A stretch of 64,000 nt of DNA from Lytechinus pictus. Taxonomy: Eukaryota. The notes beneath the pieces are model-generated. The model made no database searches and had not been told where the DNA came from. It saw nothing but the letters and a program-made list of their open reading frames with translations. A program made the translations under genes and the position numbers. Positions within the stretch are counted from its first letter, which is position 1. Every line of letters starts with the position of its first letter. Of this stretch, positions 3,885 through 60,429 are shown one piece after another. The stretch lies in NCBI RefSeq assembly GCF_037042905.1, contig NC_087250.1, positions 8,620,001-8,684,000 on the forward strand. Direction: 5' to 3'.

Positions 3885-4262
3885 ATTACTTGATATCAAG
3901 AATTCATTTCTTGATATCAAGAAATGAATTCTTGACATGAAGAATTCTATTTCTTGATATCAAGAATTCAATTCTGATATCAAGAAATGGAATTCCTGAT
4001 ATCAAGAATTTGTATTCTTGATATCAAGAAATGAATTCTTGATATCAAGAATTAGTTTTCCATTTCAAGAAATGGTTTTGTGCAGTTAAGCAATGGTAAT
4101 TCTTGATATTAAGAAATCGAATTCTTTATATCAAGAATTGAATTCTTGATATCAAGAATTCATTTCTTGACAAGAATGCAAATTCTTGATATCAGGAATT
4201 CCATTTCTTGATATCAGAAATTTGATTTCTTGATATCAAAAATTCATTTCTTGATATGAAAA
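3885..4262. repeat. Array of palindromic TTCTTGATATCAAGAA units
   Basis: More than 15 copies of the self-complementary core with short spacers. Confidence 0.85.
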
Positions 4263-7993: not shown

Positions 7994-8141
7994 TACCTCA
8001 GGCGAGGTTTTGTATAGGCTCCACTTCCATGACTACACTTCACTACCGCTACCCTCCGCCCCACTATCGGATAGTTAAAGCGGAGGGTAGCGGTAGTGAA
8101 GTGTATTGGAGCCCATACTCTACGAACCCTCGTCTGAGGTA
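7994..8141. mobile_element. Hairpin MITE, TA..TA ends, 9-bp TSD
   Basis: TACCTCAG..CTGAGGTA ends, flanks GGCATGGCC / GGCAGGGCC. Confidence 0.7.
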
Positions 8142-9374: not shown

Positions 9375-9928
9375 AGGAAACCAAAACCCAAGAAGAGGAG
9401 CAATCTTATTGGAAAAGAGTAAAATAAGAGGAACAATTTAAAACAAGTTCCACCAAAATCGGTTGTGAAATAAGCAGGTTGTGGACGTTCAAAAAGTCTT
9501 GTTGAACTTTCTATGGGGATCCTCAAATTGGCGAACGTGCTTCAAAATGGCTGATTTTGTAGACAGGTCTCCATTTGTTTTGTACACAAATTTTTAGATT
9601 TTCCCGTTTATTTTACATATTTCCTCCTGACCTTGACATGTGGTGTGAATTATATTTTCCCATGACATATATTGTGCTTAGAAGGAGGCAAGATGCAATG
9701 TGAAAGATAATGAGGAAAATTTACAAAACAAATTTTAATTAGAGTTGTCCACAAAATCAGCCATTTTGAAGCATGTTTGCCAATTTGAGGATCCCCATAG
9801 AACTTACATTAAGAGTTTTCAAACTTCCATAACTCGCTTATTATATAACCAATTTTGATTAAAACAAGTTTTAGATTGCTCTCATTTTATTCTTTCTGAT
9901 AGATTTTCTCCTTGTATTTTGGTTTCCT
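9375..9928. mobile_element. Kolobok-type palindromic MITE
   Basis: TTAA TSD, AGGAAACCAAAA TIR, long internal inverted repeats. Confidence 0.85.
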
Positions 9929-12586: not shown

Positions 12587-13559
12587 TCAAGAAATTTCGA
12601 ACGGGTTGGGTCGAAGGAATATCTTTTCCCTTCCTGTTGTAAGCTCGTGACACCATAGGGCTAAGTCAACTTGATAATTCAATCTGAATCTCGTTTGATT
12701 ACGTTCCATTTGCTGAGTTTAATCATGGACCTACATGTGTAGTAGGTCCACGGTTAAATGGACACTCGTAATAACTCCTTGAATGCGCCAAGCACCGTTA
12801 GCAGCTGGAGCTTAGCCGGTGTAATACGGGCGCCATTGAAAAGGCAACCATTGATACTCAGCGCCTCACAAATGCTTTATATTATATAACTATATCATTA
12901 AAAAAAAGAAAGTGATTTTAAGATTTGCTAGTCATTTTTAAAGTAATTCTAATTCTATGACGCCGTTGAGGCGAATGATAAATATAGTACGCTCAACTTT
13001 ATCAATTTCCTAAATTTTTGTTTGATCATACATTTTTCTACCCCTTACTATAGAGTCATGGTTGTCTCTGTGTTGAACATATGATGGATTTTCATTATTG
13101 TAACTTATGATTAAAGCTTTGTGATTTGTTTTGGTTAACCATAAAATAGGCACCTAGATAAACTATGACTTTTTATTTCCGGCTAAGAAAATAGTGTCAT
13201 TAACAATCTCATGAACATACTACCAGCGTCGTTTTGCAAATGTAAGCGACATGAAATTGTACAAACAATTTTGATGAAGAAGTTTACTGATGTTCTCTGT
13301 TAGTTCTCTTTTTTAAAGCTCTTTATCAATGGGCTATGTAATATTGTTCAGAATTCTAAATCATTTTTATCGTTCCGAGTTACATACCCATATATTCACA
13401 AGCGCACCCCTAATATTCTACACAAAAACCAATCCATAATTCACTATCACACGCATGCAAGCAGATACCAACTGCTACAAATATAAACACAATCATATTT
13501 AATCCACACTCTCACCAACTCCCACACATACGTTTAACGCTCAACCCATGCAACCTTTA

Positions 13560-14650
13560 CACTCTCGCATCCACACACCCCACTGCAACAACTACACACA
13601 TAATACACCCATTGACACACACGCATGTGGATAAAACACGTTTCACCGAGACATCACGCACACACAAAACACCCTCACGCACTAGGCACGCATTGAAACA
13701 CCCGCACTTCATCCACTTTTTTGTTTTTGTTTCCATGCACCCACATCTACACACACACATTCACACTCCCTCACATAGGCACTCATTGAAACACCCACAC
13801 TTCATCCACTTTTTTGTTTTTGTTTCCACGCACCCACAATCCACACACATCCTTTCCCACACATGCATATCAACACACCCATATTTGCCCCCAACACACA
13901 CACACACACTCACTCTCAGGCACGTTTTACTGAGACATTACACACACAAACACAACCTAACGCACTCCCTCCCATAAGCACTCATTGAAACACCCACACT
14001 TCATCCACTTTTTTGTTTTTGTTTCCACGCACCCAAATCCACACACATCTATTCCCGCACATACATATAAACACACCCATATTTGCCTCCAACACACACA
14101 CACTAACTCTCAGGCACGTTTTACTGAGACATTGCAAACACACAAACACACCCTCACGCACTCCCTCCCATAGGCACTCATTGAAACACCCACACTTCAT
14201 CCACTTTTTTGTTTTTGTTTCCATGCACCCACATCTACACACACACATTCACACATATACATATAAACACACCCATATTTACCCCCTACACACACACACA
14301 CACTCACTCTCAGGCACGTTTTACTGAGACATATTACACAAACATAAACACACCCTCACGCACCCCCTCCCATAGGCACTCATTGAAACACCCACACTTC
14401 ATCCACTTTTTTGTTTCCATGCACCCTAATCCACACACATCCATTCCCGCACATACATATAAACACATCCTTATTTGCCCCCAACACACCTTCACGCACT
14501 CCCTCCCATAGGCACTCATTGAAACACCCACACTTCATCCACTTTTTTGTTTTTGTTTCCACGCACCCACAATCCACACACACCCATTCCCACACACACA
14601 CATACACACACCCATACCTTACCCCCCGGACACTGACTCTCAGGTACCCT
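13560..14650 (+). repeat. CA-rich minisatellite, 6 units of about 100-200 bp (CACTCATTGAAACACCCACACTTCATCCAC core)
   Basis: Direct repeats; source of many spurious His/Thr-rich ORFs. Confidence 0.9.
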
Positions 14651-15305
14651 CATCCACACGCTCAAACTTCACCTACAATCCCTAACATTTCGTCACCCAC
14701 TCAAACGTTTTTATACATGTATCCGGCTCTGTGTATGATAATTGATTTTAATATTACTGTTGTGGCGACGCATTCCGGTACTCTATTCTATTTTTGTGAA
14801 TCGTTTTCTATAATCATTCTTATGTTTTATTCTTGGTTTCCCTTCTTTCAAGCCTTTGAGGCTTTTTGGGATACCTTTTTCTTTCATTATTTTTTTTATC
14901 TCACCTTAATGACTCATGATTATGTTTGTATATTTATGTTCAAAATACTGTATGATATTTGTATGTTTTTACATGTAGATAATTATTATTGAAAGAAATA
15001 AATGAGAGTATTTTCACTCTCCCTCAAAATTATAAAAACAATTCTCCCATACACTTTCACGCATTGCATTCGCGCGACGAAAAGACAACGCATTCTACAT
15101 TCATTCTAACACTGAACAAAAAACACACACACAGACCAAATTTGTTGCAATTTCATTATATACAATCGTATATATGCAGTTTAATCAATATTTAAGTTTT
15201 AAAACGTATATTTAAAAAAGTGTGAACTGCATTGGAATAAATAGTACAGATATGGACGCCGATTAACTTGTATCGATTTTCTTTGGATCTATGCTGAGCA
15301 GAAAA

Positions 15306-17604: not shown

Positions 17605-17730
17605 GGTATGTGTGAGTATGTTATTGATTTTACTTTTACAGAGTTGTATTGAATACTTGCATCTGTGACCGACATTGAACGTCATCCATGCAGGGCTCGA
17701 ACCTCAAAACTCTGCATCGATTTGGTTGTA
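17605..17730 (-). mobile_element. Old diverged copy of the SINE seen at 55461 and 56684, in the gene 3'UTR
   Basis: TCTGTGACCGACATTGAACGTCA..CAGGGCTCGAACCTC..TCTGCATCGATTT aligns with the young copies; 7SL head not recognisable. Confidence 0.65.
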
Positions 17731-22641: not shown

Positions 22642-22856
22642 GTGATAAACAAAAGTAATTTCCGTTTATAGGCGACTTGAGTGGACATGTTCACAACTTT
22701 ACCTTTAATTTTGGCGATTCTGGATTCTTGTTCTTTGTTACTCATTATTAAGGTTTAACGTACGCAGCGTCATGGATACTATTTTGGATTTCGCAGAGAT
22801 AATTAAAGTATATCAACGATAGAAAAATGTAAGATAAATCTTTGAGTTTGACCTAC

Positions 22857-23141
22857 CATGTTCGCCAATGAACACTTTCATATCCAGTATCCCTGCCAAG
22901 CTCTGCTCGGTCCCACTCACTGTGATGTTCGTCCGGAAGTCTTGATTGGTCGGATCCGTCAGGTGTAGATGGCCAATCCCACCTCGTTTATTATCTGTCC
23001 AGTAAATTACGTCATTATAAACGACTATGTGCTCAGCGTAACCGATTAATATCGATATATTGGCGAGGGCGGTACGCACGTTGGTTTCCAAATTGTACCT
23101 CTCGACTGTTTGGCCACCGTTGATCCAGTATAGACAGTTAT
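22857..23141 (-). CDS. Coding exon 5, beta-propeller (LYWIN...IYWTD...GEH)
   Basis: Polypyrimidine-TAG acceptor, GTAGGT donor, 285 nt phase 1-1, canonical YWTD motif. Confidence 0.92.
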
Positions 23142-30468: not shown

Positions 30469-32439
30469 GGTATCACAGGCCTAATTCATTTCCCATAGAC
30501 TCGTGCGTTAAAGTGGCACTTAAAAAATTCATTAAAAATAAGGACGAAATTCGAGGGTTGAATGTTTACTATCAGTGGACAGGATATATGTCTGAGATTC
30601 CATATCTGACCAGAAAAGGGTACCTCGACCGGCTCATTTTAAAAATAAATCGGCATTTATGAAGACTACACCTGCCGGGACCAAATTCATCACTTGAGAG
30701 AGTAAAATGGCCCTAATTCTTCCGCCAGTAAAAAAATAGTTCCAAAGTAGTGATATATCTTTCCAATTTGGAAAAAGAAAGTTCAGTAGGTACCCTCCCT
30801 AGAATCAGTGTTAGATTGTCAATCATATTCATTCATTTTTGTCAATCAGCAATATCAAATTTCAAAATTGAGCAATGGGTTGGCTCGAATGAATATTTTT
30901 GGCCTGCCAGTTGTAGTTAGGCCCGTGTGACCTTTATTATATGGCACATGAAGCCAGGTTTCTTTTTAAATTCCTGGCTTTTCTTTAACATCTGTACACT
31001 CACTTTATCACAAAGAAATGCATGAAATATACATATGTGTTGTGTAATGACCAATTTTAATGTTACTCCTGTATGTCTAGTGCCATATGGATTTACACAC
31101 ATCCTACCTGCCTATATATGTAGTTCAACAATGAATGGATGCAATGTAGGGCCCTAATCCTATAATGTAAAATTGTAGATAAGCATAGTGTGCATATCTG
31201 GATGCAAGAACTGCCCACAACATAAATACAAGATTTACATGAGTTAAATGAGATAACAATAAAAAGAAATGAGAATTAACATACAAGCATACTATACATT
31301 CACATCTTCCTATGACAAGGGGTGTAAGAAAGAGAGAGAGAGAGGGGGTTAGATGGCTTGTATTCTAAAGGGATGGGGGCTAGTCTGGCTAGAAATAAGT
31401 GAAAGTTAGAACAAGATAGCAGTAGCACTCATTCTCAGCCACCCCCCAGACATACTTACTCTGCTTTACTCTACCCCTCCCTCCTTCTTGAATCCACCAC
31501 TCTTCAGTCAAATTCTAAAGTTCTCTCTTCTCCATCCCTTTCCCATGAGCCATTTCCACAATTGCAATTGATCAAGGCTTATCTAATGTTTAGTGTAACC
31601 TGTAATGGGTGCTATACACGAATACAGCAGCGCTCGTTGGTATACGAAAACACACGAAAACATGCAACACAGAGACTAACGTTAGCCTAAGTTACACAGC
31701 CTAGCCTAGCCCTAGGTATACAAACACAAAGGTACTAATCACAATTCATTACCTGACATACCCCCTATACAGCCTTGCATATAACCATTAAGTCAGTTTT
31801 TGGACCTCTTGATGATTGAAACATGTATACTAGTGCAAATAATTTGCTACTGAAGAGTTTGGGCAGGTATTTCATCCACTAGGGAATTCCCCTTGTAGGC
31901 TATAGTCAAGGTCATTTTAGGTATCACAGGCCTAATTCATTTCCCATAGAATCGTGTGTTAAAGTGGCACTTTAAAAAATTCATAAAAAATAAGGAGGAA
32001 ATTCGAGGGTTGAATGTTTACTATCAATGGACAGGATATATGTCTGAGATTCCATATCTGACCAGAAAAGGGTACCTCGACCGGCTCATTTTAAAAATAA
32101 ATCGGCATTTATGAAGACTACACCTGCCGGGACCAAATAAATATTCATATCTGAATAACACGCGCCTCAAAACCCAAGATAACAACAACGAATTCATCAC
32201 TTGAGAGAGTAAAATGGCCCTAATTCTTCCGCCAGTAAAAAAATAGTTCCAAAGTAGTGATATATCTTTCCAATTTGGAAAAAGGAAGTTCAGTATGTAC
32301 CCTCCCTAGAATCAGTGTTAGATTGTCAATCATATTCATTCATTTTTGTCAATCAGCAATATCAAATTTCAAAATTGAGCAATGGGTTGGCTCGAATGAA
32401 TATCTTTGGCCTGCCAGTTGTAGTTAGGCCCGTGTGACC
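30469..32439 (+). mobile_element. Non-autonomous element with long terminal direct repeats (KolobokP-like)
   Basis: Direct repeats 30469-30932 and 31920-32439, each with short imperfect TIRs (GG..CC), TGGG TSD, TTTA at both inner junctions. Confidence 0.8.
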
Positions 32440-43499: not shown

Positions 43500-44163
43500 T
43501 CAAGAGTCTCCACTGTATGTGGGCGTGGGTCTAGACTCTATGAAAACCATTGTGTAATAGCGAAATCATTCATGCAGTCTCCAAATGAATATCCATTGAT
43601 CAACGACCTCTCAATTCGTTCCATTGGAATTTTGATACACAAGGAGATAATCAAGGTACTTTCGTTTTTCTGATTTGGAAACGGAAAAAAGCAAAAACGA
43701 AGTATATTACTAAAACGTAAAAGCTGACTCTCATTTTGAGATTTTAAACTGTTTACCGTAAAGGTTTATTTGGAATTTTGGAAAATGACATTGGGTCAGA
43801 TACACAAAAAAAATAGCAGTTGCTGGCAAGCAATATCTAGCCATGAAGAACATCATGAATTAGCAATGGCTTTATTTCGTATGCATAACCCTTTGCTTGT
43901 GCTTAAACCATTTTCTTGCCTTGAGAAAGCAATTTCTAGCGGTTTGAACAATAGCGACGTCACACTGGTGTGAACACGACTTACACAGCAAAGGCGGAAT
44001 CGAATGCCAAAGAGTGTGGCAGTGCAAAATATCGCTTCTCTCCTGTAACATCTTTTCATTAGACGTGGTGTCAAACTATTCATTTAACATGTTTATGATA
44101 AATATATTTATAAAGTTGGCATCCAGTTTGCACTTATTAGGACGAAAACATGTACAAGCAGGC

Positions 44164-44339
44164 TACACTGTAAACAAACGAAGTGCTAATTTAGCACTTA
44201 CAGTGCTGTGCTTGTATAGTGACTGCACTACGAGTGCTGATTTTCTAGTTTAAATTTGAACTAGAAAATCAACTCTCGTAGTGCAGTCCCTATACAAGCA
44301 CTGTAAGTGCTAAATTTGCACTTCATTTGTTATAGTGTA
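44164..44339. mobile_element. TACACT..AGTGTA hairpin MITE
   Basis: Near-perfect fold-back over about 175 bp. Confidence 0.75.
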
Positions 44340-47118: not shown

Positions 47119-47928
47119 CAGGAAGAGGGTGGTTACATAATGAATACGTCCATCGTCAAATCATGATTGTTTCCGGGACAAATTTTGATTTTCTCTGGAA
47201 CGAGATACACTTGGTCACTGCACTATTATTATTATCCGTGAACAAAGTTGCTTGGCCAAGCAGCATTCGATCGGTTTTTCAAAGTGTTATGTATTTTTTG
47301 CAGGCCTTTATTGAAGGGATGCTCCGGGCTGAAAATATTTAAATCTAGATAAACAGAGTAAAATTCACAGAGCAAAATTCTGAAAATATCATCAAAATCG
47401 GATAACAAATAACAAAGTTATTGAATTTTAAAGATTTGCATTATTCCGGTGAAACAGTTCTAGGCATGTCTTCATGAAATTTAATTAGGTGGGCTGATGA
47501 TGTCACTTCCCCAACTTTCCTTTTTCTTATGCTATAACATGAAATTATAATTGTTTCATTTTTTTGTATAAATGTGTAATGATGTGTTTCCATTATTATG
47601 AAAAAAAGTTGCAGCGATAAAATTAATGCACTTAATCAGTTATCAATCCAATTGATTAAGTTCTTGGAAAAAGTTTTTGAGTAAACCTAATTTCATATAA
47701 TAAATTAAAAAAGAACAAGTGGGGATATGACATCATCAGCCCACCTAATGAATATACATGAAGACGGGGACATCCCGATAGACCGCGGGTCCGTTAGACC
47801 GCGGGTCCGATAGTCCGCGGGTCCGATAGACCGCGGGTCCGATAGTCCGCAGTGTGTGTAAAATTATGATCAGATATATCAAATGTCATCGAGAGGTCCA
47901 AAGGTCAAATGAGACCATGGACTTCTAT

Positions 47929-48308
47929 CAGGTGCGGATCCATGGGGGGGGGGCCGAGGGGGAACTGCCTCACCCCCCACCCCCAGCTCAAAAAAAGAGG
48001 GGGAAGAGGGGAAAAGGAGAGAATAAAAAAGAAAGAGCAAGATGGGAAAAGAACAGAATAGAAAAGAGAGAAAGAAGGAGAAAGGAAGAGAAGAAAAAAA
48101 GAGAAGAAAAGGGGAAAGGAAAGACAAAGAAAATGGGAGAAGAAGAGAAAAAAGAGAGGAGAGAAAAGGAAGAGAAGAAAAGAAAGGAGAAAGGAAAAGG
48201 AGGAAAAAGAAGAAGAAAAAAAGAGGAAGGAAGAGAAGAATGTTTAAATAGAGGAAGATGGGAAGAAAGATATTAAATAAGAGAGAGAGGAAGAGGGGAA
48301 AAGAAGAG

Positions 48309-48346
<38 letters not shown>

Positions 48347-51300
48347 GGGGGGAGAAGAAAAAAAATGATTAAAAGAAAAAAAGGGGGAAAGGAAAGAAAA
48401 AGAAAAAGGGAGAAGTAAAGGGGGAAAGAGAAAAAACGTGGAAGAGGGAAAAGAAAGAAAAGAAAAGAACGGAGTAAGGAAAAGGGGGAAAAGAAGAAGA
48501 AAAAAAGAGGAAGGAAGATAATAATATTTAAAGAGAGAGGAAGATGGGAAAAGAGAAGAAAAGAAGAGAGAGTAAGGGGGGAGGAAGAGAAGAAAAACGA
48601 GAAAAGAGAGAGGAAAAGAGAAGACAGAAAAAAGAGAAGAAAAGGGGGAAAGGAAGACAAGAAATGAGAGAAGAAAAGGGGAATACAAAGAGAAGAAAAA
48701 AAGAGAGAGAGAGGAGGAAAAGAAGAGAAGAAGAAAAGGGGAGAGGAAGAAGGGGAAAGAAAGAGAGAAAGGAAGGAATGGGAATAAGGATAAGAGAAAG
48801 AAAAAAAAAGAAAGAAAAGGAGATGGGAAACGGAAGAGGGAGATGTTGACCTGGACGTTGATTTGATGGCGCCAAAATGACGTTCGAACTATGGGGACCC
48901 GAACTGATGTTTGAACTGGGAGGGGGGCGCCAAATTGATGTTCGAACTAGGGGAGCGCTAATTTGAATTTTGACCATAATGCGACAAATACATGTTTCAG
49001 AGAGGGGGAGGGAGGGCAAAGTTATATTTCACACGGGGGCGCCAAGTTTATGTTCAACCGAGGGCGCCAAATTGACCTTGAACTTAGGGGACTTCATGCA
49101 AATTCATTTTCGACCGGGGGCGCAACATTGCTCGTATTTCCTGTTTATAGTGAAATATATGTCCTGCCCAAAAAACTTAAATTAATGCGGCTGAATTAAA
49201 ATATCCCGTTTTTACGATAACAGACAAAAACAATGTTTTCGAGTTTTAAGTCTGTTTAGCGAGATAGATACCCTGTTCAGGGTCACATAAAAGGGTTATT
49301 ATCGAATTCAGCTCGCGCTACGCGCTCGCAATATTTGATTAATGAGGTATGCATCATCTGCATCAATCCCACATGTAAGTGTTAGTGTTTTTCAAGTCAA
49401 CATACATAGGCCGATCCAGGGGGCAAAGATATTGCCCCCCCCCCCATGGTGGCGCAAAAAAGGGGTAAGAAACAGAAAAAAAGAAAGGAAAAAAGGACAA
49501 GCAATTAGAATAGGAATTATACCTTAGTCCTTCTTAAGTCAGTATATAAAAAAATTGAGCTCGCGCTTCGCGCTGGCATCAATAAATTGTTTAGTTATAT
49601 ACGCATCCCGACCTTACAGTTTTTTATGCGAACGAGAAGCACAAGCTGAAAATATTTGATATTCTAACCTGACAACTGAAAATGTATTTTTCATTTCATC
49701 ATTATAAAAGTTTTCAGCTAGCGCTTCGCGGTCGCATTCATTTCATAATAGATATGCATCGTGTTCATCATAACAACTACTATCATAGGCGGATCCAGGC
49801 GGCCCGAGGGCAACCTCCCCCCTATTGACAGAGCAAATAAATTGGGAAAAACGGGGAAAGAAAAAAGGGAGGAACGAAAGGAGAAAAAAGAAGACGAAAC
49901 ATAAAAGGAGGAAGACGAGTGAATGAAATAAGGTCAGGAGAAGACTTTGAAAACAATTTTTGAAAATATTTAATGTCACTATATTAAAGTTTCGCTCGCG
50001 CATCGCGCTCGCATTGCCTGTTCGATGTGTTACATATCTTGCTCAATATGCTGATATGTAGTTTGAAATATCAAGTTTTGATATAAATATACAAAACATA
50101 ATTCAGCTCGGACATCGATCTTTCATTATTTTGTTTTATTCACCAATTTATGTTTTTAAGTGCTCTGGAAAATGTCCGTTTTATGGTTTGAATCAACATT
50201 TACAACATTTTGTGCGCTCGCACTATTTGCCAAGTAGGCCTACCTATTGTCAGTTTGTATTTCCAAGAAGTTTCTATGACTGGAGTTCCAACAGGCAACA
50301 CATTTATTCAAGCAGCTGTTCATTTCTAAAGAAGCACAAAAGATAGAACGACAGTTAAGACCTTTTTGATGTCCGCCTTCGAAGCCGCCAGTTTCAGTGA
50401 AGAAATCCGAAGAGTGAATTTTACGAATATCCATTTGGATCAATTTTCCATCTTTCATATTAATAAACAAACAGAAATTTGTACGCATGACAAGACATCA
50501 ATAACCAAGCGCTATTACGCTGAGATATTTGCCCAGATTATATCAATTTACCTTTAATTAGTGGAAAAAGTAAGAATTTGACCTTTACTGAAACCAGATT
50601 TTAACACTTTTCCGATCGTTTGCGGCAAATAAAAATTTCAAATGTGGTCGATGGAATATTGCTATTCATTATTGTATATGCCAGATGAGTGCCCGCACAT
50701 GCCCAGTCGAGGAAATTTGAGTCATATTTCAGGACATATTGCATAGTTTTTTTTTCGCATGCCTCCGAATTATGTACTACACATATAACCAGACCAGATG
50801 CGGCGAAAAAGTAATTATCATCACAATTGCATATTTCCCTTTATAAATGGCCTATAGCTGCGGAGTCACGCGGGAATCATTTGTCTACACAATTGCAAGA
50901 GATGTCGAGCAAAGTGCATGCCTGACATACTTTCTGCTGGTGGCTTCAAAGCTTGTTCAAAGGGATTTTGTTTGCTGTTCCTCCATCTCATTTAAACCTC
51001 CTTGGTATTTCATATAAGATTCTCTAAATATACCTTTTCAGGTGTCTCGATTGTAAAAAATAATAATAAAGGCCTATGAGCTAGCGCTGTGCGCTCGCAT
51101 TTTGATTGGTGAGTTATGTATACTTATATTAATTCTATAACAAACTACTTAAATCCCCCATTAAAAAATTCCGGATCGCGATTTGCGATCGCATTATTTG
51201 CTAAAAATATATCAACCAATGAATCCTATTCATGATTACAAAAATACTTAAAATATCCAGTTTTCAGGCCTCATGCACTGTAAACAAATTTCACACACTC

Positions 51301-52805: not shown

Positions 52806-55460
52806 GGTTCTATAACAATAACCCAATTAGGGCAATCACCCCCTGACAACTACTTCAAGGAAAATATTATCCCCATATTTTTACCGCCGGGGACTATACC
52901 CCCCCCCGGAAATTTACCCTCCAGACAATTACCCCTAGTACGGAGCCTTGAAAATGCCATCAACGTGGCGACATGGCGCGGTACTTTATCTTGCCATGTC
53001 TTAATTAATCATTGGCGGCGGAAGGCAAAAAAATTAGGGGGGTTGTTGCACCCACAAATGTAATAACGCCCACAAATGTAATAACACTTTACCCACAAAT
53101 GTAATAACGCCCACAAATGTAATAACACTTTACCCCCAAATGTAATAATTTCACCCACAAATGTAATAATGCACTTTACCCACAAATGTAATAATTTTTG
53201 ATCGCCCACAAATGTAATAATGACTTTACCCACAAATGTAATAAATTTGAAGGGATTTTTGGCGAATCCGTTCTAAACTGAAATCCTGTAGTAATGCGTT
53301 CATATAGCGATGGGCCTATTGTAATAGGTCCATGATATAGCACAAAAGTGCAAAGTCTTTTTTCCAGACCTGGTTAATTAAAAAAATATAATATAAGTCC
53401 AAAGCCTTTTTTCCAGACCCGGTTGTTTAAAAAATTATAATATAAGTCCAAAGTCTTTTTTCAAGACCCGGTTATTTCAAAAATTATAATATAAGTCCAA
53501 AGTCTTTTTTCCAGACCCGGTTGTTTAAAAAATATTATAATATAAGTTTAAAGTCTTTTTTCCAGACCCGGTTGTTTCAAAAATTATAATATAAGTCAAA
53601 AGTCTTTTTTCCAGACCCAGTTGATTAAAAAATTATGATATAAGTCCAAAGTCTTTTTTCCAGACCCGGTTGTATCAAAAATTATAATGCAAGTCCAAAG
53701 TCTTTTTTTCCAGACCCGGTTGTTTCAAAAATTATGATATAAGTCCAGTCTTTTTTCTAGACACGGTTATTTCAAAAATTACAATATAAGTCCAAACTTA
53801 GATACGATAATGATATTCAAGTGGAATAAAAATAAGAATCGAGCTTAGTCTTTTCTCCAGACCCAGTTAATTAAAACTTGTGGAATCAATGTCTTGTTGT
53901 TGTTTTAACTTATACGGCGCATATCGTGAATATATACGTAAAGAGTAAATTGAAAATCAATTGTAGTCTTTTCTCCAGACCCAGTTACTTAAAATTAAAT
54001 ACTAAAACCCTATAGTAATGCGTTCATATAGCACAAAAGTGTAAAGTCTTTTTTTCCAGACCCGGTTAATTCAAAAATTATAAATATAAGTCCAAACTAA
54101 GATACAATAATGCTATTCCAGTTGAATAAAAATGAGAATCGAGCTTAGTCTTTTCTCCAGACCCAGTTAATTAAAGCTGATGGAATAAATGTCTTTGTTG
54201 TTTTTTGAAATTATACGGCGCGTATTGTGAATATATGCGCTAAGAGTAAATTCAGAACCAAGCTTAGTCTTTTCTCCAGACCCGGTTACTTAAAACTGAA
54301 AACCCTAAAGTAATGCGTTCAAATTGCACAAAAGTGCAAAGCCTTTTTTCCAGACCAGGTTAATTAAAAAATTATAATAAAAGTCAAAGTCTTTTTTCCA
54401 GACCTGTTTGAGTAAAAAAAATATAATATAAGTCCAAAGCCTTTTTTCCAGACCCGGTTGTTTAAAAAATCATACTATAAGTCCAAAGTCTTTTTTCCAG
54501 ACCGGGTTATTTCAAAAATCATAATATAAGTCCAAACTAAGATACCATAATGATATTCCAGTGGAATAAAAATGAATTCCAGTGGAATAAAAATGAATTG
54601 AGCTTAGTCTTTTCTCTAAACCCTGTTATTCCAAAATTATAAATAACAATACAACAACAAAAACAGTATAAAGACTCCATAATCTTGTTAATGATGGATA
54701 ACATGGACATATAGAGTAGTCTTTCAGCCAGACCCAGTTATTTTTTTTCAAAATATCGCAAATAGTAATAATAAAAAACTACAAATCTAAGACCAAGCAA
54801 TCCTTCAACCTAAGAACCTGTTTTAAAAAGAGGTTAAGAACGTTGTCTTTATTCCAGACCTAATCATTTAAAATATTACCCAAAAAAAATCTTCTAACGT
54901 AAGACCCTATCATATTCTTATTCTTGTGGAATAAGACGAGATTCAAAACGTACTCTTTCCTCCAGACCCAGTTTTTTAACAAATGAAATTTAAAAATACT
55001 TCAAATCTAAGACCAATTTTCAAAAGTTACACCCAGAAAAAAATGTCTTTACCCCACACCCATTTTTTAAAAAGAAATAATACTAAGACCCCTACAAAAC
55101 ATTGTAATAATGCATGGGTAAAGCAATCATCTTTTCTCAAGACTTGGTTATTATTTGAAAAAAATAAAATAGTTTTTACAAATATTCTTAAACGAATACC
55201 CAATCATCTAATTACTGTGGAATAACATGAAGATCGATTGTAGAATTTCCTCCAGACACAGTTATTTCAAGAATAAAAAAGCAATAAAAAACCCAACCCC
55301 CAACAACGAATCTAAGAACCATCAATCCTCCAAATTAAGACCATGTAAAAAAGCACATGTTTAAAGCGTTGTCTTTATTCCTGACCCAGTCATTTAAAAA
55401 ATGATTTAAACAATCTTAAAAACATAAAACTTTTTCATATTCTTATTCCTGTGGAATAAC

Positions 55461-55639
55461 GTGTGTGTGTGTGTGTATTTGAGTTTTGTCAGACGTGTAT
55501 CAATCAGATATGATTATTTACGTCTGGGACCGACCTTTAACGTCACCATCCGAAAGACGTGACCAGGGCTCGAACCTCTGCATCAATTTGTAACTTCCCC
55601 GCATAGCTTGGATTACAGGCGCACGCCACAACGCCCAGT
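55461..55639 (-). mobile_element. 7SL-RNA-headed SINE, full-length copy
   Basis: Minus strand ACTGGGCGTTGTGGCGTGCGCCTGTAATCCAAGCTA head, GGTTCGAGCCC B-box, (CA)n tail. Confidence 0.85.
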
Positions 55640-56683
55640 ATTATGATTAGTCTTTCTTCTAGACCCGGTTATTTAAAAGATAAACAATCATTGAAAAAAA
55701 AATCTAGGCTAAGACCAATCTTCAAAATTAAACCCAGTTAAAATGCTTGGGTTTAGAGCGTTGTCTTTACCCCACACCCAGTTCTCTTAAAAATACGAAT
55801 TAAGCCAAACTATAAAAATCATGTGATAACGCATACCACAAAGACGACAAATTAATCATAGGCGTAAATATTCATATGATACGCGCCTTAAAATCCAAGA
55901 TAACAACAACAATGTTTTTCTACATCAATGATATTGTGGGGTCTTTACTTATACTGTTTGTTTGTTTTTATTGTTTCTTATAATTTCCTATTTTGAAATA
56001 ACTGGGTCTGGAGCAAAGACTACACCATATTTCCATGCTATCCAATGTTGATAAGATTGCAGGGTCTTTGTTTTGTTGTTGTTGTTGTGTTTTTTAATTA
56101 TTTTTATTACTGGGTCTTGAGAAAAGTCCACGCTATATTTCCATATTATTCAACATGACTAGGATCGTGGGTCGTTGTTTTTTTAATTATTATTATTAAT
56201 TTTGTATTATTATTCTTCATTTGTTATTTGAAAGATCTGGGTCTATATGAAAGACTACGCTATATTCCCATGTTATTTAACATTAATAAGATAGTGGGGG
56301 TCTTTGTTTCTTGTTGACTCTTTAAAAAATGATTTGTAATTTTGAAATAAGTGGGTCTGGAGGAAAGACTGCGCTATATTTCCATGTTATTCAACATCAG
56401 TAAGACTGTGGAGCCTTTGTTTTATTATTATTATATATCTTTTCTATGATTTTTTATTTTAAAATAACTGGGTCTTGAAAATAGACTACGTTATATTTTC
56501 AAGTTATTCAACATCAATGAGATAGTGGGGTCTTTGTTAATAGTGTTCTTTATGATATGCAATTGTGAAATAACCGGGGCTGGAACAAAGACTACACCAT
56601 ATTTCGATACTAATAATCATATCTGATTGATACACGTCTGACAAAACTCAAATACACACACACACACACACACACACATACTA

Positions 56684-56860
56684 ACTGGGCGTTGTGGCGT
56701 GTGCCTGTAATCCAAGCTATGTGGGGAAGTTACAAATTGATGCAGAGGTTCGAGCCCTGGTCACGTGTTTCGGATGGTGACGTTAAAGGTCGGTCCCAGA
56801 CGTAAATAATCATATCTGATTGATACACGTCTGACAAAACTCAAATACACACACACACAC
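56684..56860 (+). mobile_element. 7SL-RNA-headed SINE, full-length copy (preceded by 3' fragment 56612-56678)
   Basis: Same structure, about 3 differences from the 55461 copy. Confidence 0.85.
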
Positions 56861-58365
56861 GCTATTCAATGTTGAAAAGATTGCGGGGTCTGTTTTTGGT
56901 TGTTGTTGTTGTTCTTTTGTTTTTGAATGATTTTTTTATAACTGGGTCTGGAGGAAAGACTATGCTATATTTACATTTTGTTCAACATTAATAAAATCGT
57001 GGGGTCTTTGGGTTTTTTTTATTATTATTTATTATTTGCTATTTGAAATATTTGGGTCTGGAGCAAAGGCTAAGCTAAACTTCTATGTTATTCAACAATA
57101 AGAAGAATTTATTTGGAAGATTGTTTAAATGTTTTATATAACCGGGTCTAGAGAAAAAAGACTGTGACTTTGCACTGTATTAACGCATTACTATAGGGTT
57201 TTATTTTAGAACAGATTCGCCAAAAATCCCTTCAAATTTTGTAACATATGTGGGTAAAGACATTATTACATTTGTGGGCGATCAAAAATTATTACATATG
57301 TGGGTAAAGTGCATTATTACATTTGTGGGATGAAATTATTACATTTGTGGGTAAAGGGTTTTAGTTTTAAGTTTTAAGTAACTGGGTTTGGAGAAAACAC
57401 TACGCTTGATTCTCAATTTACTCTTAGCGCATATATTCACAATAAGCGCCGTATAAGTTAAAACAACAACAAAGACATTAATTCCACCAGTCTTGATTAA
57501 CTGGGTCTGGAGAAAAGACTAAGCTCGATTCTCATTTCCATTCCACTGGAATATCATTACCGTATCTTAGTTTGGACTTATATTATAATTTTTGAAACAA
57601 CTGGGTCTGGAAAAAAGACTTTGGACTTATATTATAATTTTTGAAACAACCGGGTCTGGAAAAAAGACTTTGGACTTATATTATATTTTTTTAAACAACC
57701 GGGTCTGGAAAAAAGACTTTGGACTTATATTAAAATTTTTGAAACAACCGGGTCTGGAAAAAAGACTTTGGACTTATATTATAATTTTTGAAACAACCGG
57801 GTCTAGAAAAAAGACTTTGGACTTATATTATAATTTTTTAATCAACCGGGTCCGGAAAAAAGACTTTGGACTTATATTATAATTTATGAAATAACCGGGT
57901 CTGGAAAAAAGACTTTGGACTTATATTATAATTTTTGAAATAACCGGGTCTGGAAAAAAGACTTTGGACTTATATCATAATTTTTTTAACAACCGGGTCT
58001 GGAAAAAAGACTTTGGACTTTTATCATAACTTTTGAAACAACCGGGTCTGGAAAAAAGACTTTGGACTTTTATCATAATTTTTGAAACAACCGGGTCTGG
58101 AAAAAAGACTTTGGACTTACATTATAAGTTTTTAATTAACCGGGTCTGGAAAAAAGACTTTGCACTTTTGTGCTATATCATGGTCCTATTGCAATAGGTC
58201 AATCGCTATATGAACGCATTACTAAAGGATTTTAGTTTAAAACGGATTCGCCAAAAATCCCTTCAAATTTATTACATTTGTGGGTAAAGTCATTATTACA
58301 TTTGTGGGCGATCAAAAATTATTACATTTGTGGGTAAAGTGCATTATTACATTTGTGGGCGAAAT

Positions 58366-58569
58366 CAGTGGCGTACCTAGGATTTTCCACAGGGGGGGCA
58401 AAACCGTCCGCCAAAAAATTTGACAAGCAAAAAAAAAAAAAAAAAAAAAAAAGGTCTTCGGTCACAAATTAAGAATTTCGTACCAGAAAAAAATTTGACA
58501 AGCCAAAAAAAAAAAAAAAAAGGTCTTCGGTCACAAATAAAGGATTTCGTACCAGAAAAAAATTTGACA

Positions 58570-58625
<56 letters not shown>

Positions 58626-58755
58626 AAACTCGTCAGGGGGGGCAAAAATGGTTTTTCAAGCCCGTCAGGGGGGGGCAAAGAGACGTTTTTGCATGGGTTG
58701 TGACTCGTCAGGGGGGCAGAGTGCCCCCCCCTGCCCCCCCGTAGGTACGCTAGTG
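58366..58755. mobile_element. hAT-like MITE
   Basis: CAGTGGCGTACCTA..TAGGTACGCTAGTG ends, perfect 8-bp TSD GGCGAAAT. Confidence 0.85.
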
Positions 58756-60429
58756 GGCGAAATTATTACATTTGTGGGTAAAGTGTTATTACATTTGTGG
58801 GCGTTATTACATTTGTGGGTAAAGTGTTATTACATTTGTGGGCGTTATTACATTTGTGGGCGATTATTACATTTGTGGGTGTAACAGGGGTCCACCTGAA
58901 ATTTTGGGATGGACACAGGTAAAGAATTTGACAAGCAAATCAACCAACATTTATAGGAGGGACCACCAACATTTTTTGACAAGAAAAAAAAGGTTATCAA
59001 CCAAAATTATGGGGGGGGGGGGCAAAAAGATTTTAGGGAGGTCCACCTCAATTTAGGGGGGGGGACGTAGAAAACAAATTGACAAGCAAAAAAAAAAGAT
59101 TCTCAACTAAAAATCTAGGGGGGACCGTCCCCCACCTCAAATTTAGGGGGGAAAGGTCCCCCTTCCCCCGCTTCCACCGCCTAAGTAATTAATACGCTTA
59201 TTATTTCGACATAGCGATATATTCTAACTTGTCAAGTCGATATGTCGACATGGCGAGATATGAAGTGTACAAGTCCCGGCGAGAATCCCGATATATCGCC
59301 ATGTTGACATGTTACTTATTTAAGTCGACTTTGCAAGATAAAATATCTCGCCATGTTGACATATAACTTTTTATAAGTGGGCTGACTTGGCAGGATAACG
59401 TATCGCGCCATGCGGACATAATAAGCTTATTTAGTCGACAAGGCAAGATAAAGTATTTCGCCATGTCGTCAAGTCGATGGCATTTTAGAGGCTCCGTATG
59501 GCGTCTAGAGGGTAAATTTCCGAGGGGGGGGGGGCGGTAACAGTCCCTGACGATAAAAATATGGGGATAATATTTTCCTTGAAGTAGATGTCAGGTGGCG
59601 ATTGTCCTTTGGGTCATCGTTATAGAACCCCATGGACTCGTATCATTGGCCTTTTAACCTCTTGATGACATTGGATCTCACTATATCCTGATCATAATTT
59701 TACACACACCGCGGACTATCGGACCCGCGGACTATCGGACCCGCGGTCTATCGGACCCGCGGTCTATCGGGCTGTAACCATAAATACTTATATTGTATTG
59801 TATTGTATTGTAATGATGATCGAACTTCGTCTTTAGAATCATCAGACCTTTCACACGGAAAATTCATACCGTAATTTGAGTGGAACTTGACTGAAATTCA
59901 CCTCCGGAGTAGAATTTGAATTCGTGATTGTAATTAGCGTTCGTAATTCTGGTTTGGTTTCATACGTGCTAAAAATTCGTTATTAGAATTATTTTTCACT
60001 GGAATCATCATTCGAATTACTTTTTTTTTGCCGTGTGAAAGGTTGGTATAGCTTTGTAAAGTAATCAATGCCTTTCTTTTTCTCAAGGGCTCTTTGTGAT
60101 ATTTATTGTATCGTGATTTATTTCTAGGAAAAAGGTACTGGGACTAGCACATTTACTTCACGGATAAATCACATTTATTCTGTTTGAAGATGTGTGAGAT
60201 AAATAAATTATAAACCAGCAGCGAAATTCATTTGCAAGTGCAGTTAACCTAATTTCACTTCCAACTACTACACTAAGAGGCTGTTCTCACTACGTTCCTA
60301 AAACTAGTTTACTGGAAACTAGTTTAACGCGTAGTGAGAACGGTCGAAGCGGTCTTGGAAGCGATCTTCCAAACCAGTTTGGAAAACCAGCTCGCGATGT
60401 AGTTTTCTATGAGACGCCGATTGTACCAA

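Follow-up and report, generated by a model that had tools for sequence, protein, structure and literature searches.

Short interspersed elements (SINEs) derived from 7SL RNA are extremely rare, and according to the portions of Kojima 2020 (PMC7245038) on which we draw, Euarchontoglires were the only group known to have well-defined families until the one in hagfish was described. In those portions and in the parts of Kosushkin et al. 2026 (PMC13023118) used here, the reported hosts of 7SL SINEs are supraprimates, hagfish and, as of 2026, a shrew mole, and none of these SINEs has lost either end of 7SL. Here, we describe a 177-nt SINE with a 7SL-like 5' end in a stretch of 64,000 nucleotides from the sea urchin Lytechinus pictus (NCBI RefSeq assembly GCF_037042905.1, contig NC_087250.1, positions 8,620,001 to 8,684,000 of the forward strand). 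This whole stretch is called the window below, and coordinates are positions within it. The element is a composite of three modules, namely, a 7SL-like head, half of the head of a tRNA-type SINE, and a tail derived from a long interspersed element (LINE).

We compared the element with described systems, drawing throughout on portions of the cited papers. SINE1-1_EBu of hagfish (Kojima 2020, PMC7245038) shares with it a host outside Euarchontoglires, the joining of a 7SL piece to an older tRNA-derived SINE, a LINE-derived tail ending in a simple repeat, and mobilization (apparent, in the sea urchin element) by a LINE other than L1. However, SINE1-1_EBu is described with both 5' and 3' 7SL regions (an Alu domain with a central deletion) and bipartite RTE sequences, whereas the sea urchin element has only the 5' 47 nt of 7SL and appears to take its box B from a tRNA-type SINE. 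Alu, B1, and Urop, as presented in the sections of Kosushkin et al. 2026 (PMC13023118) consulted, have the same 5' 7SL segment with CCUGUAAUCC, the same pattern of helices 3 and 4, and the same logic of an internal promoter for RNA polymerase III, but their central deletion of ~183 nt, retained 3' part, A-rich tails, and association with L1 have no counterpart in the sea urchin element. Tu-type SINEs of tree shrews and GarnAlu, both cited in PMC7245038, likewise combine 7SL and tRNA SINE material; in these, whole monomers are fused, whereas in the sea urchin element, the join falls inside 1 promoter unit (putative box A from 7SL, box B tRNA-type).

Alu retrotransposition requires a 46-nt 5' Alu domain that associates with SRP9/14, 2 signal recognition particle (SRP) proteins, as reported in the parts of Moldovan, Yin & Moran 2025 (PMC12199147) seen. 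This minimal domain coincides with the 47-nt 7SL-like part described here, which matches model positions 1-44, although the former was tested in HeLa cells as an engineered human construct together with L1 (PMC12199147) and the latter belongs to a natural element with another LINE. Sea urchin SINE2 families (SINE2-n_SP and others) also have an echinoid host, and the B-box half, linker, and LINE tail of the present element resemble those of 3 metagenome loci (L001-L003, below). None of these SINE2 families is described with a 7SL head in the portions of PMC4758252 and PMC5804259 available.

Anatomy of the element

The original prediction had placed 2 copies of about 178 bp on opposite strands, with about 3 differences between them, and a 3' fragment at 56612. 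Our coordinates agree with it to within 2 nt (177 nt, 3 sites, and a fragment of 56 nt). The copies and modules are as follows:

55463..55639, minus strand: full-length SINE copy 1, 177 nt; retains 2 CpGs that are TpG in copy 2
56684..56860, plus strand: full-length SINE copy 2, 177 nt
56612..56678, plus strand: 5'-truncated copy, element positions 122-177 plus (AC)12; ends 5 nt upstream of copy 2
55593..55639, minus strand: head module of copy 1; Metazoa_SRP, 29.6 bits, E 1.7e-5
56684..56730, plus strand: head module of copy 2, element positions 1-47; Metazoa_SRP, 27.2 bits, E 8.7e-5 (window-wide E 1e-3)
56731..56772, plus strand: tRNA-type SINE head (3' half) and linker, element positions 48-89
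56747-56757, plus strand: B-box-like GGTTCGAGCCC, element positions 64-74
56773..56846, plus strand: LINE 3'-untranslated-region-derived body and tail (~75 nt), 84% identity to metagenome locus L004 over 81 nt
56847..56860, plus strand: (CA)n terminal repeat of copy 2

The 2 full-length copies form an inverted pair, being 98% complementary and, by BLAST, 98.3% identical over 177 nt, with mismatches at element positions 19 (T/C), 39 (T/C), and 84 (G/C). At positions 19 and 39, CpG in copy 1 is replaced by TpG in copy 2. The fragment (56612-56667, 56 nt) is 100% identical to element positions 122-177, and a longer (AC)n tract continues from it to 56678. Exactly 2 instances of the head motif and exactly 2 of the core motif were counted in the window; the expectation from 100 shuffles is 0. 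The element, at 177 nt and with differing flanks in the window and in 4 open reading frames (ORFs) on other contigs, has the size and arrangement that SINEBase gives for SINEs (short, <1 kb, interspersed, and non-tandem).

A 5' segment resembling the 7SL RNA Alu domain

A permissive Rfam scan of 55440-56880 (1.4 kb), the source of the local E values listed above, gave model positions 1-44 of Metazoa_SRP (RF00017) as the best match of both copies, with the first base of the element aligned to model position 1. The likeness to 7SL on which the original prediction was built is borne out by this match. The head resembles the 5' part of the Alu domain, with helices 2-4 and the CCUGUAAUCC turn; AGCUA and CCUGUAAUCC are reproduced exactly, and most of the paired columns in helices 2 to 4 are preserved, with 1 or 2 non-standard pairs. 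In copy 1, 34 of the 44 model positions are identical to the Rfam consensus. A G-C pair becomes G-U through the C/T difference at element position 19.

When the whole 64 kb was scanned, the 2 heads were the sole SRP matches (E 8.3e-4 and 9.9e-4), and at gathering thresholds, Rfam had no match in the window. The model forced to align end to end (glocal, model 1-299) spanned 87 nt and scored 29.5 and 29.2 bits, with no gain over positions 1-44. No tRNA model matched at E<=10 in the permissive scan, and ARAGORN found no tRNA. Weak matches to the mir-1268 model at the heads reflect only their likeness to Alu.

B-box half and SINE relatives

The tRNA-type B box of the original prediction is present as GGTTCGAGCCC, as is its (CA)n tail. 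We scanned metagenome contigs with a degenerate 27-nt core pattern and obtained 4 loci (L001-L004), none of which carries the 7SL-like head. The genome contig collection had 0 matches to the tail pattern and 0 to the core pattern, and the viral contigs had 0 matches. Three of the loci (L001-L003) are SINE-like, with heads different from that of the window element, the same body and tail, and (CA)n or (CAAC)n ends. By BLAST against the window element, L002 aligned at element positions 64-174 (90%), L003 at 77-161 (87%), and L001 at 77-166 (86%), while the heads of all 3 failed to align to positions 1-47. The head of L002 contains TAGTGGTTAG and GGTTCGAATCC as box A and box B motifs. In L003 (165-375), the box A region is of the GGTCGAGCGG type, 9 nt are inserted in the tail hairpin, and the end is (CAAC)n. 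Evidently, different heads and terminal repeats have been swapped onto a single LINE-derived module. As a negative control for the SRP match, L001-L004 had 0 Rfam matches at E<=1, and ARAGORN found 0 tRNAs in them.

The window itself contains a further relative:

17650..17724, minus strand: older diverged relative, B-box half plus LINE module, 69% over 87 columns; without the 7SL-like head

Its alignment (17724-17650, minus strand) to the element starts at position 50, and the sequence upstream is unrelated to the 7SL-like head. Because the relatives align only from position ~50 on, the junction lies at about positions 47-50, right after the SRP match. When the element is compared with a SINE2, whose head derives from a tRNA and has both boxes, it shows box B (GGTTCGAGCCC) in the half that it shares with its box-A/B-headed relatives, whereas its 5' half is 7SL-like and neither a tRNA model nor ARAGORN matched. 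To judge from these alignments, the B-box half was taken from a resident SINE lineage, which agrees with the chimeric makeup first proposed for the element.

A tail shared with the 3' end of a LINE

Element positions 90-170 are 84% identical by BLAST to L004, which has no head and contains an upstream ORF with its stop codon ~55 nt before the shared module. The 127-aa ORF of L004 is 82-86% identical to the C-termini of the ENA proteins P0008, P0009, and P0012, all with RVT_1 (E 3e-33 in P0012 and 8.5e-33 in P0009), contains a C..CG...EH zinc-knuckle-like motif, and gives a weak match to zf-RVT (E 0.15). As positions 90-170 match sequence lying 3' of the stop codon of a LINE ORF2, this segment is identified by homology as a LINE-derived tail, extending from GATGGTGACG onward. 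The preceding TTTCG is part of the linker and is common to the SINE relatives only. The 3' region is thus held in common with a LINE 3' end, as in LINE-dependent (stringent-type) SINEs, with the LINE represented here by a metagenome contig and not by the host genome. The original prediction had suggested looking for a LINE sharing the 3' tail, and L004 provides it. The reading of TTTCGGATGGTGACGTTAAAGGTCGGTCCC as a core of the Deu/Nin/Meta type found no support, as the sequence from GATGGTGACG on is the one that matches L004 after the ORF2 stop.

A search of the Atlas with the LINE protein returned generic RVT_1 clusters only and no clade. The partner LINE was not found in the window, where tblastn of P0012 gave nothing below E 0.27 and Pfam had no relevant match among 22 window ORFs and 15 ORFs upstream of the 32.1-kb tail described next. 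The tail of the element contains a predicted hairpin, CAGACGU...ACGUCUG, at 56797-56833.

Two other retroposon tails were observed in the window. A 52-nt tail with a (CAA)n end at 32139-32190 (plus strand) is related to the SINE/LINE tail; it is present in segment 31920-32230 and absent from the 97%-identical segment 30469-30723 (empty site 30686), with no obvious target-site duplication. Fairly recent insertions of 5'-truncated copies by this LINE group have therefore taken place here. A short (CAA)n-type tail copy, 81% identical to 32138-32189, is present at 55865-55910 (plus strand), near the center of the palindrome in which the SINE pair lies.

Occurrence outside the window

Element positions 50-157, translated in reverse frame, give a 36-aa peptide, which we used as the query against 1.84 billion protein representatives. 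Eight proteins were identified at E<=0.001, and a search with one of them, P0018, added P0026, giving 9 proteins. In 4 of the 9 (P0018, P0019, P0020, and P0026), the reverse frame encodes the body followed by (A)WITGARHNA(Q), the peptide obtained from the 7SL-like head when element positions 2/5-34 are translated in reverse frame. Each of these 4 proteins lies on a single ENA contig, and together they show at least 3 different flanks and 2 sequence variants. P0019 and P0020 have identical element-encoded peptides and different flanks. The body was encoded without the (A)WITGARHNA(Q) head in P0022-P0025, and P0021 is a 946-aa protein with 7 weak stretches.

Since head-bearing ORFs with different flanks occur in independent assemblies, the element belongs to a dispersed family and is not a one-off retrocopy. 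We consider the element likely to be a dispersed sea urchin SINE, with a 5' domain that derives from 7SL. The flanking peptides of P0020 and P0026 were similar but diverged, and these 2 may represent the same insertion in 2 related genomes or haplotypes, hence an older copy. In sequencing runs of a second organism, 0.20-0.25 of the sampled words of a 1701-nt stretch were present, close to the share of that stretch which is element sequence (423 of 1701), a figure that carries no evidential weight.

Classification and novelty

We set the element against the features used to define SINE classes. As in SINE1, the 5' end corresponds to that of 7SL (Metazoa_SRP positions 1-44). The 3' 7SL region that follows the ~183-nt central deletion in the SINE1 elements covered by the portions of PMC13023118 used is absent, and positions 48 onward are instead homologous to the SINE relatives. 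The SINEBase rule (at least 60% identity to tRNA, 5S, or 7SL over at least 60 nt; PMC3531059, in the part consulted) is not reached, since the overlap is ~47 nt with 34 of 44 positions identical, as counted against the Rfam consensus and not the host 7SL.

In the literature, with Repbase and Dfam outside the comparison, we found no report of a 7SL SINE in sea urchins or in any invertebrate. The core motif had 0 occurrences in full texts and in the readable supplements of 3 papers (1 file was unread in each of 2). The family may be present in Repbase or Dfam under a SINE2 or unclassified label. By its module content, the element is best described as a SINE with a 7SL/tRNA hybrid head and a LINE tail in an echinoderm, probably new and not a canonical SINE1. 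We lean, by a narrow balance, toward regarding it as the first 7SL-built SINE lineage from an invertebrate (an echinoderm), independent of those of mammals and hagfish, in which only the ~46-nt minimal module has been kept, within a tRNA-type promoter and with a non-L1 LINE.

Alternative explanations

Several observations weigh against a 7SL origin of the head and a mobile family built on it. The heads score ~29 bits where the gathering score of the family is 70, a wide shortfall; no more than ~47 nt are 7SL-like; and neither copy shows any sign of the 7SL 3' region in the glocal alignment. With the Rfam consensus as the reference, descent of the head from the local (sea urchin) 7SL is presumptive. 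Compensatory changes were found at 0 of the 17 pairs of the tail hairpin among 6 sequences, and the 64 kb hold only 2 full copies and 1 fragment. The low score, the shortness of the stretch, and the missing 3' part would suit an ordinary tRNA-derived SINE (SINE2), with a degenerate 5' half that became 7SL-like by chance or via selection for box A; its B-box half, linker, and tail would then simply be those of its relatives with box-A/B heads. A further point against the hybrid-head reading is that the label "tRNA-type" for the heads of those relatives comes from A- and B-box motifs, with no tRNA recognized in them by Rfam or ARAGORN. We judge a SINE2 of this kind to be improbable, because the SRP match reaches E 1.7e-5 and 8.7e-5 locally and ~1e-3 window-wide with structure kept, no tRNA match exists, the element starts exactly at model position 1, and the 4 other-headed relatives lack an SRP match at E<=1 and have heads that cannot be aligned to positions 1-47. 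The few copies found might also point to a chimeric retrocopy, made once when template switching fused 7SL RNA with a SINE or LINE transcript and never a transposing family, and chimeric small-RNA/LINE retrocopies are known (Discussion of PMC7245038, as far as the part used extends). Such an origin is very hard to reconcile with head-bearing copies that occur twice in the window and in 4 ORFs on other contigs, in 2 variants and with at least 3 flanks. Contamination by human Alu, or an assembly artifact, has practically no standing: the head is Alu-like enough for a weak match to the Alu-derived mir-1268 model, but its likeness to 7SL extends over no more than 47 nt, 10 of 44 positions depart from the consensus, and the join to SINE modules of sea urchin type is seamless, both in the 2 copies and in independent assemblies. 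We rejected human Alu contamination on these grounds.

A 7SL-headed SINE could be real and its 2 window copies nevertheless not independent. The 2 copies are enclosed by a large imperfect palindrome at 53.0-58.9 kb (53050-58880), built from satellite arrays of 49-bp units, ~110-bp units, and 18-25-bp TTATTACATTTGTGGG units, with outer arms 83-92% identical and inner arms alike at satellite level only. Both full copies sit at mirror positions of the palindrome and at an identical site within the ~110-bp monomer, with ...TTTCCA on one side and TGTTATTC... on the other, neither has a clear target-site duplication, and the midpoint of the pair (56161) is 1 monomer away from the midpoint of a flanking palindrome block (56053.5). 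These features, too, count against the 2 copies as separate transpositions, and their 98% identity may come from duplication or gene conversion and not from recent transposition. If a single satellite insertion was copied by inverted duplication or arm-to-arm conversion, it would be unfounded to call the element young and active, and we regard this as a serious possibility that falls short of an even chance. On the other side, the 98% identity within the element gives way to satellite level (~60-70%) no more than ~10 nt from either end, copy 2 has beside it a separate 5'-truncated copy whose sequence equals the tail of copy 2, and P0019 and P0020 encode identical element peptides between different flanks. 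The truncated copy is bordered on both sides by ATACT, a possible 5-nt target-site duplication, and looks like a separate event. Either the element inserted twice with a preference for a site, in which case it may favor 1 site of the satellite monomer, or 1 insertion was copied between the arms.

Proposed origin and mobilization

In a 7SL-headed SINE of this structure, RNA polymerase III would begin transcription at position 1, with box A supplied by the 7SL part and box B by the SINE part. The 5' Alu domain alone binds SRP9/14 in vitro, according to structural work. By analogy with what has been proposed for Alu, the 7SL 5' domain of the element (UGUAAU turn and helices) could plausibly recruit SRP9/14 and so bring the RNA to ribosomes that are making LINE protein. 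The reverse transcriptase of the partner LINE would recognize the 3' stem-loop and the (CA)n tail and carry out target-primed reverse transcription. The element most likely originated when a reverse transcriptase switched from SINE RNA to 7SL RNA or when 2 elements recombined; an origin of this sort would explain why the element starts at 7SL position 1. A chimeric copy ending exactly at the 7SL 5' end would then have become the master element. The same kinds of events have been proposed for the hagfish element in the portions of Kojima 2020 (PMC7245038) on which we draw.

If this reading is correct, an echinoderm element with only the first 47 nt of 7SL represents an independent origin in an invertebrate and a natural counterpart of the 46-nt minimal Alu domain, as that domain is described in the part of PMC12199147 used. 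It would suggest that what selection retains is not the Alu fold as a whole but the 5' domain that binds SRP9/14 and that this domain can work with a LINE that recognizes a specific tail. As sea urchin embryos can be injected and genomic resources are ample, transcription, SRP9/14 binding, and mobilization are directly testable.

Other features of the window

The sole clear coding sequence found in the window is a YWTD-type exon at 22816-23115 (minus strand), which is 100% identical to a Lytechinus pictus LRP1-like protein over 86% of the 100-aa query and 93% identical to a pro-EGF-like paralogue; the invertebrate host assumed in the original prediction is confirmed by this exon. Sub-threshold matches to plant and animal microRNA-precursor models (e.g., MIR8007, 58 bits, E 3e-8) were observed at 9509-9800 (minus strand), 3890-4220, 8025-8112, and 44154-44313, and are probably long inverted repeats or hairpins resembling miniature inverted-repeat transposable elements and not microRNA genes. 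Low-complexity tracts at 13400-15000 and 47880-49030 (CA/ACAC-rich and CT-rich) give rise to spurious long ORFs.

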